Shown: one piece after another, positions 54,350-61,618 of the stretch | How positions within the stretch are numbered: position 1 is the stretch's first letter | How the letters are laid out: every line of letters begins with the position of its first letter | From: Candidatus Saccharimonadia bacterium | GTDB lineage: Bacteria > Patescibacteriota > Saccharimonadia > Saccharimonadales > 2-12-FULL-41-12 | Direction of reading: 5' to 3' | Assembly: GCA_963717365.1 (NCBI GenBank) | Contig: OY970327.1 | Location: forward strand, 927,752-991,751 | DNA: 64,000 bases | Notes under the pieces: generated by a model | What the model saw: only the letters and a program-made list of their open reading frames with translations | What the model was told of the DNA's origin: nothing | The model's database searches: none | Made by a program: the position numbers and the translations under genes

Positions 54350-54748
54350 TTATTTTACCAACTGCACAAGCTTAGGTAATTTGGCGGCCAGTTTTTTATC
54401 GTAAGTGAGTAACGGAAGATCATTATTAAGTTCGGCATAAACTGCTAGGCAAACATCTACAAAAGATAGCGTTGGATGGGCGACATACAGGGGAACAGCT
54501 TTTTGCAACATAGCCCGGTTGCAGTTAATTTGTGGAAGGCCCACCAATGTCTCGATATTAGCAGCAATAGCATCTCGGCTTTGGGCGTGGGCTGGTCCTT
54601 GCAGAATCCAGACTACCTCTGCAAAAACATAGTCAGCTACCGCAAATTCTTGCCCTGACTGCGCAATAAGCTGCTCGATCTGGCTGGACTGGGCAGGAAC
54701 ATCTCCTAGCAAGAGACGTAAAACAATATTTGTATCAAGACTTTTCAT
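54350..54748 (-). CDS. vapC: PIN-domain toxin (VapC-like)
   Basis: LDTNIVLRLLLGD supplies the first Asp. Later motifs are FAEVVWIL and SFVDVCLAVYAE. It overlaps the antitoxin stop by 1 nt. Confidence 0.8.
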   Translation of the reverse strand: MKSLDTNIVLRLLLGDVPAQSSQIEQLIAQSGQEFAVADYVFAEVVWILQGPAHAQSRDAIAANIETLVGLPQINCNRAMLQKAVPLYVAHPTLSFVDVCLAVYAELNNDLPLLTYDKKLAAKLPKLVQLVK

Positions 54749-55038
54749 TACCTAAGGCTGTTCTGATATTTTTCCAGGGCTGCTTGTTCTGCTGCTTGGT
54801 TGATTGCATCATCCAACTCTTCGTCGGACATAGGTTTTATGTTATTTTTTCGCATATGGGCTTGATTTTTGGCTTGGATTTTACGCAGATCAGATAACCA
54901 ATCTATTTTCTCTATAATTACTTTGTTGCCCTGCATATTAATAGATAGCCGTTCACCCGGCTTAATGCCAAGTTTTTTACGAAACGGAGCAGGCAAAGTC
55001 ATTTGGCCTTTGCTGGTAACTTTTGTTTGATAGGTCAT
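54748..55038 (-). CDS. vapB: AbrB/SpoVT-MazE-fold antitoxin (VapB-like)
   Basis: KVTSKGQMTLPAPFRKKLGIKPGERLSI is the classic swapped-hairpin AbrB-type DNA-binding motif. 96 aa. Confidence 0.8.
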   Translation of the reverse strand: MTYQTKVTSKGQMTLPAPFRKKLGIKPGERLSINMQGNKVIIEKIDWLSDLRKIQAKNQAHMRKNNIKPMSDEELDDAINQAAEQAALEKYQNSLR

Positions 55039-55103: not shown

Positions 55104-56528
55104 TTATTTAGCCCCAGCGCCGGCAATAATTGCTCGCACCGTCTTCAGCAAAATTACTAAATCAAGCCAGAAGCTCCAGTTCTGTACATAGTAGGCATCC
55201 AGTTTACGCCGTTCCTCAAAACTGATATCGCGTCGTCCTGACACCTGTGCCAGACCGGTTAGTCCAGAGCGAACACTTAACAGATTATGCTTGTGTGGAT
55301 AGTTTTTGAGCTCTTCCGGGACCAAGGCTCGTGGACCAATTAGGCTGATATCGCCTTTTAAGACATTAATCAACTGGGGTAGTTCGTCGATACTGGCGGA
55401 CCGTAAGATGTTTCCGCTCCGGGTGATACGCGGATCATGGCGAATGGTGTCGCCGCCGGCGCGGTATTGTTTGGCTAATTCGGCCTTCCCAATCATGGCA
55501 AATGCTTCCTCTGGGGTGGTACCATCGAACTTTTTGTACTGACTGCGAAATTTATAGACCTTAAATGGGCGATCAAACTGGGTTAATCTAATCTGTGAAA
55601 ATACCAGAGTTTCCCGAGGATTCAGTAGTTTCATTATAATTATCGCTACCAACATAATTGGGCTAGTAACAACTAATAAAATAATGGCTGCCAAAATATC
55701 GAACAATCGTTTCACTATACGGCCCCAGCCAACCAGCGCGGTCTGATGGACGGTTACTACCGGTGTCCCACGAAATAACTCAACCTCGATGTTGCCAATA
55801 AACAACTCACTATTACCAGGGATGAAACGATATGTAATATGATTGTTTTGAGCGTAGCTCATGATCTCGTCATTTTTGAGACCGTCTTTGTATAGTTCGG
55901 TCTGCACGATTGTATGAACAGTCGTATTTTGGAGATTACTAACTGCTTGTTCAAAGCTATTAAACTGCTGGAACTTGCTGGTTTTACCAACAACCCCAAC
56001 AATGCGATAACCGGAGTGCCGGGTATGTTCAAGTTCGGCAATCAAGCCAGCCCGGGCGCTATCCTCGCCGCCGATGATCAATACGTTCGTCACGCCGCTG
56101 CCAAAGCTAAAGAACACACTGCGCAGCAGCCGTGCGACACCCCTAAAGAACAATAGATAACTGAACCCAAGTAACAGAGCGTAGACCACGACCAGCCGGG
56201 CAGGGAAGAGTTCCTCGTTTGAAATAAAGTCGTAGCCAATAACGACCAGGATACCCAAGAAGGAACCAACAATCAGTCTCCCAAACTCCCTAAAGCGGTT
56301 TTCATAGGTGTTGCGGTGGTACAACCCAATCAGGGCATGGACAGCAATCCATAAGGGTATAACCGCCAGAAAGGCGTACAGGTAGGTCTCGGCTGGAATC
56401 TGCTGGATCAGTGGACGGTCATCTACCTTAACGCGCAAAATGTAGGCACTGGTAAAAGCTGCCACCAGTGCCAAAAAGTCGCCGAGTATCAGGAATAGCG
56501 CGTAAACTAGCGAAGCATTATTTTTCAT
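55104..56528 (-). CDS. Polyprenyl-phosphate hexose-1-phosphate transferase (WbaP/CpsE-type initiating sugar transferase)
   Basis: Four to five N-terminal TM helices and a central Rossmann-like region. The C-terminal bacterial sugar-transferase domain carries KRLFDILAAIILL, RPFKVYKFRSQ, DELPQLINVLKGDISLIGPRA and YVQNWSFWLDL. Confidence 0.85.
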   Translation of the reverse strand: MKNNASLVYALFLILGDFLALVAAFTSAYILRVKVDDRPLIQQIPAETYLYAFLAVIPLWIAVHALIGLYHRNTYENRFREFGRLIVGSFLGILVVIGYDFISNEELFPARLVVVYALLLGFSYLLFFRGVARLLRSVFFSFGSGVTNVLIIGGEDSARAGLIAELEHTRHSGYRIVGVVGKTSKFQQFNSFEQAVSNLQNTTVHTIVQTELYKDGLKNDEIMSYAQNNHITYRFIPGNSELFIGNIEVELFRGTPVVTVHQTALVGWGRIVKRLFDILAAIILLVVTSPIMLVAIIIMKLLNPRETLVFSQIRLTQFDRPFKVYKFRSQYKKFDGTTPEEAFAMIGKAELAKQYRAGGDTIRHDPRITRSGNILRSASIDELPQLINVLKGDISLIGPRALVPEELKNYPHKHNLLSVRSGLTGLAQVSGRRDISFEERRKLDAYYVQNWSFWLDLVILLKTVRAIIAGAGAK

Positions 56529-56564
56529 GGGTTAACTATATTGTATCATCGGTTAAACCTCCCT

Positions 56565-56734
56565 GGAGCTAATTCACATCTATCTGCTATGAGCGAAACT
56601 TCAGCAGCTGCCTTAATTTTCAATTGGTTTTCTCGGTTTTTGGTCGTACCTACGGGTACGAGCCGAAAACGAAAAACCGATTGAAAGTGGCAGACCTGAG
56701 GTTTTTAGCTAGCAGATAGATGTGAATTAGCTCC
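56565..56734. repeat. 170-nt extended imperfect palindrome with perfect 25-bp terminal inverted repeats (structured RNA or MITE-like element)
   Basis: GGAGCTAATTCACATCTATCTGCTA (56565-56589) is the exact reverse complement of 56710-56734. The interior arms also pair down to a CGTACC-tacg-GGTACG tip at about 56645-56660. It occupies the divergent intergenic region between the WbaP-type gene and gtrA. Confidence 0.75.
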
Positions 56735-56776
56735 GAGTGATATACTGAACGATAGATATTACCAAAAAGTTAAAAC

Positions 56777-57286
56777 ATGGCGCAAAAAACAAAGAAACCT
56801 AAAAAAACCGAACTACGGCGTTTCACCGAATATATGATAAGCGGTGGCGCCTATTTCTGGTCAGGCTATCTGGTATTTTTCTTTATTGATAAGGGCTTGG
56901 GTATGACCTTTTTCTGGGCCAAGTCAATTTCTACTCTGGTGGGCTGGAGCGTTAACTATGCCTTGCAGCGTTACTGGGTATTTAAAAATCCAGAACTCGC
57001 TAAGCACAAAACCCAGGTTACCAGCCGCTACACTTTCATCACGCTGGTCAACTTTGTGCTCGATTATCTTATTGTCTTTGGCCTTAAAACCATCGGCATA
57101 ACCCCATACATTGGCCAATTTATCTCTTCGGCGTTCTTTACCGTCTGGAACTACCTTTGGTACAAATATTGGGTATTCCCTGACAAATTTGATAAAAAGA
57201 AAACTAAGCGGGTCAAACAGACCCCAGCGCATGTATTGGCTCATCATGCCCACGGCCACACTGCTTACCGAGTACACCCAAAATGA
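56777..57286 (+). CDS. gtrA: GtrA-family membrane protein (polyprenol-linked sugar translocation family)
   Basis: Four TM helices. YMISGGAYFWSGYLVFFFI, NYALQRYWVFK and VWNYLWYKYWVF are typical GtrA-like repeats. Extended basic/His-rich C-terminus. Confidence 0.75.
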   Translation: MAQKTKKPKKTELRRFTEYMISGGAYFWSGYLVFFFIDKGLGMTFFWAKSISTLVGWSVNYALQRYWVFKNPELAKHKTQVTSRYTFITLVNFVLDYLIVFGLKTIGITPYIGQFISSAFFTVWNYLWYKYWVFPDKFDKKKTKRVKQTPAHVLAHHAHGHTAYRVHPK

Positions 57287-57741
57287 GCACGGTTGTCCGC
57301 CCAACCAAAAAACAGCGCGAGCTGCTGACCTTCCTTGATGAATTTATCACCCAGCACGGCTACAGCCCCAGTTACCGCGAAATCATGTCCGGATGCAGCT
57401 ATACGTCTGTGGCTACCGTCGCCTTGCACGTTAACAGCTTGATTAAGCGCGGCCACCTTCGTAAAAAAGACCGCTCGGCTCGTTCGTTAGAAGTTATCAA
57501 AGAAACCGAAACGGCAGATCTTGCAAAAATACAAACCACCGCCTTAAAAGCCAGCGAAGAAAAATGGTTGGTAGAGAAAATCGATTATAAATTTAGACAG
57601 TGTGAAGACTCATCTCAGCCAAGTGAAGCTGACATCGATGGATTGTATGTATTGGTCGGTGCTCTAAAAGTATTGCAGCTGGAGGGCGCGGCCAGCTCGT
57701 TTATGCCACGGCTGAGCGAACTGAAAAAACAATTTAAATAA
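57283..57741 (+). CDS. LexA-N-terminal-domain-like winged-helix DNA-binding protein lacking the S24 peptidase domain
   Basis: TKKQRELLTFLDEFITQHGYSPSYREIMSG...SVATVALHVNSLIKRGHLRK matches the LexA DNA-binding domain. The remaining ~80 aa show no Ala-Gly cleavage site or Ser/Lys dyad. ATGA overlap with gtrA. Confidence 0.7.
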   Translation: MSTVVRPTKKQRELLTFLDEFITQHGYSPSYREIMSGCSYTSVATVALHVNSLIKRGHLRKKDRSARSLEVIKETETADLAKIQTTALKASEEKWLVEKIDYKFRQCEDSSQPSEADIDGLYVLVGALKVLQLEGAASSFMPRLSELKKQFK

Positions 57742-57880
57742 TTATGAAAACGCATTTGTTGCATGCGCAGCCAGTTGACAAGCATAAACGTGAGCATATA
57801 AGCTGGTACTTAAGACGCTCATGGTAATGGACCTAACATGTAGTACAGTGAAATTAACAAAAACAACCAACCAAGGTGGG

Positions 57881-57910
57881 TTGACAAAAAATCTCTAATG
57901 TTGCTATCAT
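57881..57910 (+). promoter_or_regulatory. Sigma70-like promoter of candidate sRNA
   Basis: TTGACA (57881-57886), an 18-nt spacer, then TATCAT (57905-57910). A second TTGACA-16-TATAAG lies at 57773-57800. Confidence 0.45.
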
Positions 57911-57916
57911 AGTAGT

Positions 57917-58025
57917 CCTGTGTCAAACAGGAATATTTAGATAGCCGCGTTAAACCGGCTAAGACTCAAACGAAAGTTTGAATCGCAACTGTAGCAAAAA
58001 AGCACCCGTAAAAAGGTGCTTTTTT
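57917..58025 (+). ncRNA. Candidate ~110-nt small RNA bounded by promoter and intrinsic terminator
   Basis: Three local hairpins: CCTGT-gtcaa-ACAGG, GCCG-cgttaaac-CGGC, and GACTCAAAC-GAAA-GTTTGAATC with a GNRA loop. These are followed by the terminator AGCACC-cgtaaaaa-GGTGCT + TTTTTT. No ORF and no + strand gene downstream. Confidence 0.4.
57996..58025. terminator. Bidirectional intrinsic terminator
   Basis: AAAAA-AGCACC-cgtaaaaa-GGTGCT-TTTTT gives an A-run and a T-run flanking a 6-bp GC-rich stem. It can serve the + strand sRNA candidate and the - strand 40-aa ORF. Confidence 0.7.
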
Positions 58026-58066
58026 GTTGAGTTGTTTATAACGGTTAACAGCCCGTCTTAAATTAA

Positions 58067-58189
58067 CTACTTTCTACGACGAATTGTCTCGGTCTGCGTG
58101 ATCTTGGGGCTTGTAACTGCTTTACGCGGTTCTACAAAGCGACCAGTGATAGAGCTACGCACTACCTTGATAGGTTTTGAATTAGCCAT
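58067..58189 (-). CDS. 40-aa basic small protein (not in ORF track)
   Basis: Hand translation gives MANSKPIKVVRSSITGRFVEPRKAVTSPKITQTETIRRRK. A strong SD AGGAG lies 7 nt upstream of the ATG, and the bidirectional terminator follows. It resembles a widespread family of tiny ...SGRFV...TT.TET... proteins (recalled from memory, unverified). Confidence 0.55.
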   Translation of the reverse strand: MANSKPIKVVRSSITGRFVEPRKAVTSPKITQTETIRRRK

Positions 58190-58262
58190 GCTAATACTCC
58201 TGCCTGATTAAGCCATGCTTGATATTAAAAGAGAGAGCCGCATGTGTGGCTTACCAATCTTT

Positions 58263-58379
58263 TGGCGGCGGGAGAGGGATTCGAACCCTCGACGCGTATT
58301 TGAATTGCAACTGTAATTGTTCATCGTTTCACGTATCTGTTTTGGAGACAGGCACATTAAACCACTCTGTCATCCCGCC
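58263..58379 (-). tRNA. Atypical 117-nt tRNA-like gene (class-II/Ser-like body, anticodon loop CUCCAAA = CCA, 45-nt variable region, encoded CCA end)
   Basis: Acceptor GGCGGGA/UCCCGCC, discriminator G, 3' CCA. D arm ACA-GAGUGGUUUAA-UGU. Anticodon arm CCUGU-CUCCAAA-ACAGA (4 bp + C:A). T arm GAGGG-UUCGAAU-CCCUC. 45 nt (UACGUG...UACGCGUC) lie between the anticodon stem and the T stem. Confidence 0.6.
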
Positions 58380-58431
58380 ACTTTGGTGTTATTTTCTGTT
58401 AATTCATTTTGATTTCTCAATAATTTCAGAA

Positions 58432-58536
58432 CAAAAAAGAAGTTCACACCAGCCTCGGAGTGTAGGTGCCGGTTAGGCTTCTACGCTTTGGAGCGTTGGT
58501 ACTTCTACCTACTACTCCAAGCTGCTATGAACTTCT
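58432..58536 (-). terminator. 99-nt extended hairpin followed by U6 on the minus strand (terminator or 3' end of a structured RNA)
   Basis: On the minus strand, AGAAGUUCA (58536-58528) pairs with UGAACUUCU (58446-58438). Inner helix CAGCUUGGAGUAGUAGGU/CACCUACACUCCGAGGCUG. Apical ACGCU-ccaa-AGCGU. U-run at 58437-58432. Confidence 0.5.
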
Positions 58537-58624
58537 AACTATGCTAACCGAATCTTTGACGGGTACCAGCCGTGTTTGTGAATGAACTCACACCTTGTAA
58601 CACTAGTCTAGCGTTAACAATATA

Positions 58625-58653
58625 ATAGTAACGCTAGCTATAGCGTAATGCAA
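58625..58653 (-). promoter_or_regulatory. Candidate minus-strand sigma70-like promoter
   Basis: On the minus strand, TTGCAT (58653-58648), a 17-nt spacer, then TACTAT (58630-58625). It overlaps a 9-bp hairpin CTAGCGTTA/TAACGCTAG (58608-58637). Confidence 0.35.
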
Positions 58654-58704
58654 GCTTTTTACGTAGTGTTAATTACACAGTTTTACAGGTAATAAGTCTT
58701 CGAT

Positions 58705-60873
58705 TCAACCAATCTGAACCAACTGATTGTGCCTAACCGCGTCCATAATTACTATTTCGCCCATGGCAGGTGTAATGTTTATAAAGCTGCGCCACGGATT
58801 AGTGATGGAAACTACTCTAGACGTAGGCAAATCAAGTGATGATAGGCCGCGGGCGCCTTCGATAGCCTTGAGCCAGGCAAGCGGTGTTTTGCCAAAGCGA
58901 CCCTCTTCGCTAGCGGAGCCGTCCATGCGCCATTTGGCGTAGGTTGTGCTTACTTGAGCTTTATCGGAGTCAGAAAGTACCACCCGAGCCGCGCCAGCAT
59001 TCTCCATGGTCTCTAGTGCGTATGTCGGGCTGTCAATACCAGGAGCAATCACTACTGAGTAAACTTTTTCTATGCTGCCATGTTCTTCTAGTCTCGCAAG
59101 GCCGGAGAGCACGGCAATATCCTGGTCGGGGGAAGTAGTAACTCCATCATTTGGGTTATTATCACTGCGGTAGAGCGAATCGCCGCCCGTATCTACGCCA
59201 ACTACAATTTCCGCGTTTACCATGTCCGCCAGTTCGCGAATATTTTGCTGCACGACCTCCGGATCGGTACTGGTAAGAATGAATATCCGGTTGTTCTCAC
59301 TGCCGTCCTCAAATGGAATAGCTTCTAAGAAACGCCAGTCGCTGGCAGCTTCTGTTTCTTTAGTTATCTCAACCAGCGCGCTGCTTACGCGTTCGCCCGG
59401 ATTAGTAAGAGGTTTCTCGCCGTTTCTGACAGAGACAATCGCGCTTGTTTTGCTGCCATACTTTTCTTCAAATATCTTGCTCAGCATTGCTGCCTGTAAT
59501 CCGTCAGAACCGCCGCCCATGCCCACAAACAGTACGCGCTTGTCGTGTAAGCCGGTATAACCTTCAAACATAGGCAAGCTGTTTAGGTTATCCAGGCTTT
59601 GTTTTTGAATTTCTGGAACAAACATATTGCCATGGCGGTTAAATCGTATAATTGCATCTTCTAGCTTGAGCGTGCCTTGGTTTAATGCACGCGTAAGATC
59701 GCCAAGTTCAGCGGTAACTACGCCTGTTTTTCCATTTCTACGAGCATCAATATCTGCAATATGTGCTTCTTGTAGAATATGGGCAAAGTAGGTTAAAGCA
59801 GTTTCCATTTGGTGTTGTTCCGATAGGGCTTTTAGCAAGGCCGGTCCGTAGTAGGGCAACGTAGCGCGGTCATCAATGCCGGTTTTATTAAGTTCAGTGG
59901 TCAGGATAGTTTTAACCGCTAGAGCCAAATTATCGTAGGCTTCTTTTAACGGCTCAAATTGTTCTGGTGATGCGTAACGGAGCATACAACCTAAGCGTAC
60001 TTGGGCTTTAGCTTCAGCGATTTGGTCTGTTCCCAATTCTTGGGTATTAACTCCAAGTTGTTGTGCTCGGTATTCAAGGTAGGTGTTGTAGCGTTCGGTT
60101 GCGCCGCTCAACTCAGTGCTAGAAAGTGCCGCGGTGGCCCGGGACATGCTCATATAGGTGGGAAAGGTAAGAACAATAGAGCTGTCAGGGTTTACGTGCC
60201 CAACCACGCCGGCTAAATCCAGCATGGCATGCATAACGTACATGCTTCGGGTTTTTTCCTCTAGATCTTCTGGTATTGCTTCAAGACTAGCCGCCGGTCC
60301 TTCGGTTTGTAGGAACTGCGCATAGTTTAGGCGGATGCCAAATATTCTTTGGATAAGCTTCTGTTCTTCTTCCGGGAATTTGCCATAACTTGGCAAGAGA
60401 CTTTCCTGCTGTGCGGCATACTGCGAATTTCCTAGTAAGCTGGTAAGAACTTCATCATGGTCAACTTCTTTAGGATCAATACCCATTTCATCAAATACAC
60501 GTCCGCTTTTGCCAATATCATGGATAAGCATAATATATTGCATGGTTTCAAAGCTTTGATGTTCGTCAAGGGTTTCAGTAAACCAGTTATTAAGCTCGTC
60601 AAACTGCTCGCGGGTGAGACGTACTGCTTCATTTTGTACTTCTGTGAGAGCCGCATAATTTTCATCTCCGCCTTCGTATAGGTAACGCAAGCAATTCAGC
60701 GAGCACTGGGTACGCTTTTTCTCGGCGTCAAGGTCAAATTGCCCGGATGCTGCTTCAGGGGTGGCGGCCACATCATATCCGCTTAATAGTTGCCATTCAG
60801 GCAGGGAGTCTATATCAAACTGTGGGTTCGCGGCTGAGTTATGAGGAGGTGAATAAGAGTTGGCTTGCTTCAT
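58705..60873 (-). CDS. Two-domain protein of unknown function: N-terminal HD-motif-containing helical domain + C-terminal DUF1152-like domain
   Basis: HD-like motif is IMLIHDIGKSG, with a later YVMHAMLDLAGVVGH. The C-terminal half has VLFVGMGGGSDGLQAA and IVVGVDTGGDSL, the paired GGG(S/G)D / D-x-GGD motifs I associate with DUF1152 (from memory). 722 aa. Confidence 0.55.
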   Translation of the reverse strand: MKQANSYSPPHNSAANPQFDIDSLPEWQLLSGYDVAATPEAASGQFDLDAEKKRTQCSLNCLRYLYEGGDENYAALTEVQNEAVRLTREQFDELNNWFTETLDEHQSFETMQYIMLIHDIGKSGRVFDEMGIDPKEVDHDEVLTSLLGNSQYAAQQESLLPSYGKFPEEEQKLIQRIFGIRLNYAQFLQTEGPAASLEAIPEDLEEKTRSMYVMHAMLDLAGVVGHVNPDSSIVLTFPTYMSMSRATAALSSTELSGATERYNTYLEYRAQQLGVNTQELGTDQIAEAKAQVRLGCMLRYASPEQFEPLKEAYDNLALAVKTILTTELNKTGIDDRATLPYYGPALLKALSEQHQMETALTYFAHILQEAHIADIDARRNGKTGVVTAELGDLTRALNQGTLKLEDAIIRFNRHGNMFVPEIQKQSLDNLNSLPMFEGYTGLHDKRVLFVGMGGGSDGLQAAMLSKIFEEKYGSKTSAIVSVRNGEKPLTNPGERVSSALVEITKETEAASDWRFLEAIPFEDGSENNRIFILTSTDPEVVQQNIRELADMVNAEIVVGVDTGGDSLYRSDNNPNDGVTTSPDQDIAVLSGLARLEEHGSIEKVYSVVIAPGIDSPTYALETMENAGAARVVLSDSDKAQVSTTYAKWRMDGSASEEGRFGKTPLAWLKAIEGARGLSSLDLPTSRVVSITNPWRSFINITPAMGEIVIMDAVRHNQLVQIG

Positions 60874-60876
60874 TAT

Positions 60877-61521
60877 TTACGAATTTACTTTACTATGTGT
60901 CTTGGCAAAATCGGCAGCTTCTTTGCCGAATTGCCCGCTGGCGATTGCCTGAGCGAACGCATGATTTTCCGCGCGGCCTTCCATAAATCGTAGATAGGCT
61001 GGGTTCTTGGTTTGGGTTAGCTCTATTAAGTTTTTCGCAATACCATACAGGGCAATACTAGTTTCTAGCATTTCATCCAGGGAAGAAACTACAAATACAT
61101 TAGGTGAAGCATTGTTTGCAAGATGAGTAGCGGTCAGTTTCCGAGCTCTTAGAGATTCTTTTCTCGCTACCTCGTTATCTGGCTCTACTGAGTCATCCAG
61201 ATCTAATTCAATCATAGGTATGACAAATTTTGGCAGAGGAGTAGGGGCGCGCAGACTGCTGACTATTGAGTAGCCTGTTTCGGCAAGACTGCCACTACCT
61301 AGAGTCGAGCCGAGTACTGGCCAGCATTGTACGACGTCATGTGCTAAATGGTCAGATTCAATATCGGCCATTTCAGGCTTCCAGGTACCGGGAGCGAGCT
61401 GAGGATTATAATAGTTTATTCCTTGACGCTCATACTCAGGGATAAAGAGTTCCTGCCGAAAAGTAGACTCCCCGCAGGTGCCAAACAAGCCTACAACTGG
61501 TTGTAATTCGAATGCCGACAT
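60877..61521 (-). CDS. Nucleoside 2-deoxyribosyltransferase-like (Nuc_deoxyri_tr2-type) protein
   Basis: VVGLFGTCGESTFRQELFIPEYERQGINYYNPQL..W.PEM...E..HL..DVV..WPVLGSTLGSGSLAETGYSI matches the pattern of the NDT-like family: an N-terminal G-x-CG loop, FNPQ, and S-x-x-E near the end of strand 4. Its stop is 3 nt from the next ATG. Confidence 0.55.
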   Translation of the reverse strand: MSAFELQPVVGLFGTCGESTFRQELFIPEYERQGINYYNPQLAPGTWKPEMADIESDHLAHDVVQCWPVLGSTLGSGSLAETGYSIVSSLRAPTPLPKFVIPMIELDLDDSVEPDNEVARKESLRARKLTATHLANNASPNVFVVSSLDEMLETSIALYGIAKNLIELTQTKNPAYLRFMEGRAENHAFAQAIASGQFGKEAADFAKTHSKVNS

Positions 61522-61618
61522 AATTTTGTCATTATATTATCATAAATAATCTGTAAAGTCAATTTTCTGTGGCAATAATTACCCTGTTAATGAATGTCTT
61601 AGTCTATAATTGATCGCA

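Follow-up and report, generated by a model that had tools for sequence, protein, structure and literature searches.

The hairpin at 56565-56734 is most likely a MITE copy that became inserted between two putative divergent promoters; it represents a new family, whose mobilizing enzyme probably belongs to the IS5 family. All positions refer to the window, that is, the whole stretch of DNA that was analyzed (64 kb). This reading follows from the true ends of the element, its dispersal, the duplications at its targets and its absence from orthologous spacers. The element is small, contains no transposase gene and has terminal inverted repeats; copies were found at unrelated sites, orthologous spacers differ in its presence or absence, and an internally deleted derivative also fits a MITE. 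The preliminary description had considered a leader or regulatory RNA, a processed small RNA and a MITE that landed in the promoter region, and had proposed copy number and target duplications as the means of telling a MITE from a functional RNA. With 12 full-length copies, TAA/TTA duplications and absence in six relatives, this comparison came out for the MITE, and the insertion at this locus is probably an ordinary selfish one rather than a dedicated regulatory RNA.

Structure and ends of the hairpin

The two ends had been described as exact reverse complements over 25 nt, and the inverted arms (56565-56589 and 56710-56734) are indeed 100% complementary and lie 120 nt apart. The 25-mer arm had no second occurrence in the 64-kb window (0 expected by chance). 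Alignment with the other copies placed the true ends one base inside (Table 1), and since the ends of the other copies match these positions, the outer G...C pair is flanking sequence. Pairing extends over nearly the full length of the element, with a stem of 74 bp, and the RNA of the window copy is predicted to form one extended hairpin capped by a UACG tetraloop, in agreement with the interior pairing down to a tacg tip that had been noticed before. The minimum free energy (MFE) was -103.2 kcal/mol for the + strand RNA (z = -16.6) and -86.7 kcal/mol for the - strand RNA (z = -14.8), both relative to dinucleotide shuffles; the energies of the two strands, whose comparison had been suggested earlier, are thus unequal. 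The five + strand G:U positions found by hand folding were recovered as G.T/G:U oppositions within the + strand helices, the same set being obtained from the arm-versus-arm alignment and from the MFE structure. The - strand MFE structure had one G:U pair. One A.C opposition appeared in an internal loop of the window copy under one alignment, and none within helices. Hereafter, '+' denotes the better-folding orientation of the element in every family member.

The sole ORF at the element is a 47-codon, TTG-started frame across its left half. In Rfam, the best match to the window copy was a plant miRNA-precursor model (24.5 bits, where the gathering score is 119) and the copies in L008, L009, L012 and L019 had no match, so that the Rfam check proposed earlier brought up no family near its gathering score. 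A scan for intrinsic terminators revealed no terminator-like site at the element, and the sequence 3' of the stem (CGAGTGATA) contains no U-tract.

Table 1. Features of the element, its host spacer and the sites of other copies (window positions unless a locus is named)
Feature	Position or locus	Strand	Basis or remark
Probable MITE copy, 168 bp, ends GAGCTAATTC...GAATTAGCTC	56566..56733	+	nhmmer and blastn versus 12 metagenome copies
Left terminal inverted repeat	56566..56589	+	first 21 nt identical in 7/7 distinct copies
Right terminal inverted repeat	56710..56733	+	arm pairing; copy comparison
Apical tetraloop tacg	56651..56654	+	loop differs among copies (tata, gttg)
G:U pairs	56595/56705, 56600/56700, 56617/56687, 56625/56679, 56641/56665	+	arm alignment and MFE
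Left flank CTG, window copy	56563..56565		no matching triplet on right side
Right flank CGA, window copy	56734..56736		3 extra bases versus L003 spacer; unlike left flank
Putative extended -10 box TGATACAAT, WbaP-type gene	56540..56548	-	conserved motif; 11 nt from start codon
Putative extended -10 box TGATATACT, gtrA	56738..56746	+	conserved motif; 30 nt from start
Polyprenyl glycosylphosphotransferase, WbaP-like, left neighbor	55104..56528	-	Pfam Bac_transf 1.2e-56 and CoA_binding_3
gtrA-family gene, right neighbor	56777..57286	+	Pfam GtrA_DPMS_TM 1.8e-16
LexA_DNA_bind-domain gene, after gtrA	57283-57741		Pfam 3.6e-13
Spacer lengths in relatives	L003, L004, L034, L035, L036, L037		77 bp, 62, 169, 59, 80 and 183, respectively
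Site B-a	L005/L007/L012 (three samples)		flanks TAA / TAA
Site D-d	L019		flanks TAA / TAA
Site C-b	L008		flanks TTA / TTA
Short-copy site	L013/L006		flanks TTA / TTA
Site A-c	L009, L011 and others		flanks TAA / TAG or TAA / TGG

Copies of the element and their insertion sites

A scan of metagenome contigs for an exact 20-mer revealed 16 loci, most of which had two inverted matches approximately 148 nt apart. At 12 of the 16 loci the copy was full-length, with 168-170 bp and 85-88% identity to the element in the window, and these 12 copies comprise 7 distinct sequences. The polarity of the copies was clear, with the opposite orientation aligning at only about 72%, and the right half of the element was nearly invariant among them. 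Two contigs (L006 and L013) carried an 82-bp internally deleted derivative in which about 46 nt remain at the left end and 27 nt at the right. A 21-nt solo right arm was located in L014 (298-324) with TAA on either side, immediately 3' of the stop codon of an ORF, and could be a remnant or a product of excision or deletion. At least four different left flanks and at least four right flanks were observed among the copies, none of them like the flanks in the window, and the proteins encoded next to the other copies have named homologues in Saccharibacteria/Saccharimonadales. One 20-mer match, in L020, was rejected as a chance match inside a 971-codon ORF. In a genome contig collection, the scan with AGCTAATTCACATCTATCTG found only two chance matches, in orthologous coding regions of Nanoarchaeota; among viral contigs, a 16-mer scan gave 13 single-arm matches that were also attributed to chance, none of them accompanied by the second arm; and phage and plasmid collections contained no match to the element.

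Although the full-length copies number 12, they represent about 5-6 independent sites, because several contigs look chimeric across the element. In both L016 and L010, the left flank of one site is joined to the right flank of another, and contigs L005, L016, L010, L019 and L009 from the same samples mix element flanks between sites; L005 and L016 have the same starting base and 630 nt in common up to the element. Such mixed-flank contigs are probably chimeric assemblies across the repeat, and recombination between copies is also possible.

A perfect 3-bp TWA duplication was found at four of the five non-window sites, each with a chance of 1/64. The window copy, in contrast, has no target duplication (CTG on the left versus CGA on the right), which counts against the MITE reading, as does the presence of only one copy in the 64-kb window. 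The length of CGA fits a 3-bp duplication and its sequence differs from that of the left flank. Relatives of other sites did not provide a clean empty site: in L038 and L039, which resemble the L009 site, homology ends before the insertion point, and in L040, which resembles the L008 site, a neighboring 179-codon gene is absent as well.

Some additional features of these loci were observed. First, several copies adjoin the 3' end of an ORF or extend into it (L012 4390-4659, L008 6224-6230 and L006 2317-2319); in L006 and L014 the TAA/TTA target is the stop codon itself, and in L012 and L008 the reading frame enters the element and stops inside it. Second, a non-coding stretch of L009 (5185-5429, corresponding to L038 9697-9940) located upstream of a comM-like gene is 88% identical between the two contigs, coding regions being about 77% identical. 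Within this stretch, a 35-nt segment matches in either orientation, and Rfam gave no family at its gathering score.

Comparison with orthologous spacers revealed that the same divergent gene pair, comprising the WbaP-type transferase gene, whose homologues belong to Candidatus Saccharimonadales, and gtrA, is present in six relatives (L003, L004 and L034-L037). The host is accordingly a member of the Saccharibacteria (CPR) with a small genome. No match to an nhmmer profile of the element was detected in the spacers of these six relatives. The neighboring genes are those named in the preliminary description, and the element does fill most of the spacer between them (168 of the 248 nt at 56529-56776). 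In the closest relative, L003 (95% protein identity), the spacer corresponds to that of the window over 37 nt to the left of the element and 40 nt to its right, plus CGA in the window; the sum 77 + 168 + 3 = 248 is exactly the length of the window spacer. The surrounding region appears to contain other insertions. A PIN-domain toxin and a MazE/AbrB-type antitoxin are encoded at 54350-55038, between the WbaP-type gene and a GT4 glycosyltransferase gene; since these two flanking genes are adjacent in L003, L004 and L034-L037, the toxin-antitoxin pair looks like a lineage-specific insertion. Similarly, about 3.9 kb (57742-61600) separate the LexA-type gene from bacA in the window and encode two proteins, one of 722 aa with DUF6829 and DUF1152 and one of 214 aa for which Pfam gave no match; because the LexA-type gene and bacA are close together in L034-L037, this segment is another lineage-specific insertion near the element.

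With regard to the mechanism, the element would have been mobilized in trans, by cut and paste, by a DDE transposase of the IS5 family that most resembles the IS1031 group. Judged from the termini and the duplication alone, the chance that the mobilizing enzyme would belong to the IS5 family is roughly even. The element starts with GAGC, and 'GAG' ends are given for the IS1031 group in the ISfinder table. Its TAA/TTA targets are of the TNA form, with a 3-bp repeat. The IS1031 group prefers TNA and produces exclusively a 3-bp direct repeat, and the inverted repeat of its member ISLrh starts with GAAC (PMC12016507); PIF/Harbinger, with which the IS5 family is grouped, likewise generates 3-bp duplications (PMC12730594). 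In the window and all loci examined, we found neither a second pair of matching arms (with up to five mismatches) nor a transposase gene or an autonomous element with these termini.

Putative promoters and strand asymmetry

The divergent promoter region recognized earlier was supported by two outward-facing putative -10 boxes that are conserved among relatives. The motif TGnTATACT is present in all seven orthologous spacers, and ATTGTATCA is kept in five of the seven (window, L003, L004, L036 and L037) with one change in L034; this conservation suggests that both motifs are promoters. The element sits between the two boxes and outside both of them, and the boxes face away from it. Because it lies upstream of both putative -10 boxes, it would not be in the gtrA leader, and the proposed gtrA leader RNA was not borne out, as the conserved gtrA box TGnTATACT is downstream of the element. 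The distance between the motifs is 5 nt in L004, 18 nt in L003 and about 100 nt in L034, and thus the gap is unconstrained and tolerates insertions. On the MITE reading, the element would have inserted into a spacer of approximately 77 bp between divergent, outward-facing extended -10 promoters, after which both genes probably kept their own promoters. The hairpin would then be a by-product of the palindromic build of the element rather than a device evolved for the WbaP-type/gtrA locus, and we infer that the insertion was neutral.

A promoter consensus scan found one + strand site (56522-56549) that would start transcription just before the element, and there may be read-through from it into the element; promoter-like sites are at the level of shuffled sequences (1 found versus 1.2 expected). 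Inspection by eye for -35-like hexamers that the element ends might contribute to hybrid promoters gave no convincing candidate.

Other inserts were noticed in the same promoter gap. Unrelated imperfect palindromes are present in L034 (2370-2439, 33-nt arms, 73%) and L037 (2404-2442, 18-nt arms, 83%), so that three of the seven lineages have a hairpin-forming insert of some kind between the divergent -10 boxes. Moreover, two short collinear stretches of the L037 spacer (2318-2500), TCTATCTGGTATGA and GGTTTTTAGCTA, match the window copy specifically. Their chained score (z of about 4) was reached by none of 300 shuffles, and nhmmer gave no match; this similarity could be what is left of an earlier insertion of this element or of a related one.

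These inserts bear on a possible co-option at the DNA level, in which the element would either space or insulate the divergent promoters, or provide a site for protein binding or cruciform formation that uncouples or co-regulates them, for example via the LexA-type regulator encoded after gtrA. We consider such a role quite improbable. In its favor, the two -10 boxes exactly bracket the element, palindromes recur in this gap in L034 and L037, the collinear similarity of L037 points in the same direction and a LexA_DNA_bind gene is part of the gtrA operon. However, the gap varies from 5 to about 100 nt without any conserved sequence, three lineages have no palindrome, the similarity of L037 fails in nhmmer, no binding motif was identified, and elsewhere the element is found at the 3' ends of genes.

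The strand asymmetry extends beyond the window. All seven distinct copies were more stable in the '+' orientation, by 2.7-17.5 kcal/mol, and had more G:U pairs in it. Among stem sites with transition mismatches in the whole family, 10 give G:U and 3 give A:C on the + strand (p = 0.09), and for the window copy the 5:0 bias toward G:U has a two-sided p value of 0.06. Three of the 10 G:U sites are fixed in all copies, and others are common to several copies; because most wobble sites were inherited by descent, the independent events are fewer than 10. Folding with DNA parameters gave the same asymmetry (-57.3 kcal/mol for + versus -49.6 kcal/mol for -), and hence it is not specific to RNA. From a chance of roughly 1/16, the preliminary description had taken the wobble pattern as a hint of selection on an RNA read toward gtrA. 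The + bias is real and family-wide, whereas its attribution to RNA stays weak, the bias being statistically weak, mostly inherited and equally visible with DNA parameters. The asymmetry fits RNA, single-stranded DNA or a strand-biased mutation history of the founder alike.

Compensatory changes were found at three stem pairs (22/149, 56/120 and 61/115), a number matched in only 3 of 500 shuffles. In each of these pairs it is the window copy that differs from all others, and they therefore represent one lineage. Together, the asymmetry and the compensatory pairs say that the palindrome is being kept, and pure neutral decay of a MITE would predict neither a shared better-folding orientation nor three two-sided pair changes. 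An enrichment of variable columns at unpaired positions (odds ratio 10.5) was rejected as evidence of selection, because in a palindrome any substitution that is not compensated makes its position variable and, by construction, unpaired as well. With regard to orientation, '+' is co-directional with the gene ending just upstream in L012, L008 and L019; two of these three sites are flanked by convergent genes, and the short copy runs antisense to the genes next to it. The three co-directional sites and the short copy are too few for a test.

One explanation of the asymmetry would be selection on the RNA hairpin of the MITE. The '+' transcript would act on host mRNA as an RNase III substrate, a 3'-end stabilizer or a processing site, as in Correia and ERIC elements, or it would give rise to small RNAs; at this locus, a weak upstream promoter would feed the hairpin toward gtrA. 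We regard this as unlikely. The five G:U pairs with no A.C within the helices of the window copy, the common orientation of all seven distinct copies and the family-wide ratio of G:U to A:C sites are what it would predict, but the p values are only 0.06 and 0.09, most wobble sites are inherited and the asymmetry is equal with DNA parameters. The compensatory pairs also agree with it, with the reservation that all of them set a single lineage (the window) apart. Likewise, the promoter-like site just before the element would supply a transcript, although its match is at shuffle level and the element lies upstream of both conserved -10 boxes here. Co-directionality with the upstream gene at three sites is set against the short derivative, which is antisense to its neighbor genes, and against a stem that has no U-tract following it. 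Finally, the effects of RNase III and RNase E on Correia and ERIC elements offer a precedent (PMC10969869). A regulatory or processed small RNA is thus unsupported at this locus, and the strand asymmetry keeps that reading weakly alive. It is likewise doubtful that one-strand selection has kept the hairpin of the MITE family as a portable module, either of RNA or of single-stranded DNA, in ultra-small CPR genomes. If one-strand selection were true, the element would form an RNase III-type processing or stabilizing site, or a source of small RNAs, wherever it is inserted in a transcript, and would be a portable post-transcriptional control element for gene-poor bacteria.

The asymmetry could also arise from transposition of single-stranded DNA by an HUH/Y1 enzyme (IS200- or RAYT-type) that reads the hairpin on one strand, which we think very improbable. 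Such an enzyme would account for the strand asymmetry, in line with the persistence of the G.T bias under DNA parameters, and a Y1_Tnp (PF01797) gene is located at L008 7634-8248, about 1.4 kb from the L008 copy. However, the syntenic contig L040 also has this Y1_Tnp gene (351-965) and lacks the element over 9 kb around it, so that no link is evident. Moreover, IS200/IS605 and REP elements are not known to leave long perfect terminal inverted repeats or 3-bp duplications on either side.

Comparison with known elements

Assignment of the hairpin to a MITE removes a tempting false lead, namely a locus-specific riboregulator of the cell-envelope glycosylation operon. The MITE family is apparently active in Saccharibacteria, whose genomes are about 1 Mb. 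The element provides a practical marker of strain-level variation and probably gives rise to chimeric joins when metagenomes with Saccharibacteria are assembled. Its strand asymmetry poses a testable question, that is, whether selection on palindromic elements acts at the level of RNA or of single-stranded DNA. Full-text searches of a paper library found no report of a MITE for Saccharibacteria, and Patescibacteria and Saccharibacteria are unmentioned in a large survey of prokaryotic MITEs. The element is therefore a new family of a well-known kind.

Among the known systems, MITEs derived from IS5/IS1031, which are bacterial kin of the PIF/Harbinger 'Tourist' MITEs, are likewise small, non-coding and multicopy. 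MITEs of the IS1031 group share with the element termini of GA/GAG and a 3-bp duplication of TNA, represented here by TAA/TTA. Two differences could be observed. First, no partner IS or transposase was found here, and the window copy has no duplication. Second, the palindrome takes in almost all of the element and is not limited to the termini.

Correia elements of Neisseria resemble the element in length (about 100-200 bp), in terminal inverted repeats of about 25 nt and in their frequent location near promoters. They duplicate TA. They have no sequence similarity to the element and occur in a different phylum, and whereas Correia elements have their own promoters and an IHF site, the element here has no promoter above chance. 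Hairpins in Correia transcripts are cut by RNase III, and effects through promoters, IHF sites and RNase III/E have been documented for Correia and ERIC elements (PMC10969869).

The ERIC/IRU elements of Enterobacteriaceae are also intergenic and share the whole-length imperfect palindrome (about 127 bp in ERIC/IRU), and ERIC affects mRNA when transcribed (PMC10969869). On the other hand, the element here has no sequence similarity to them and no Rfam match, and in contrast with the poorly defined mobility and duplications of ERIC, the family described here shows clear 3-bp duplications.
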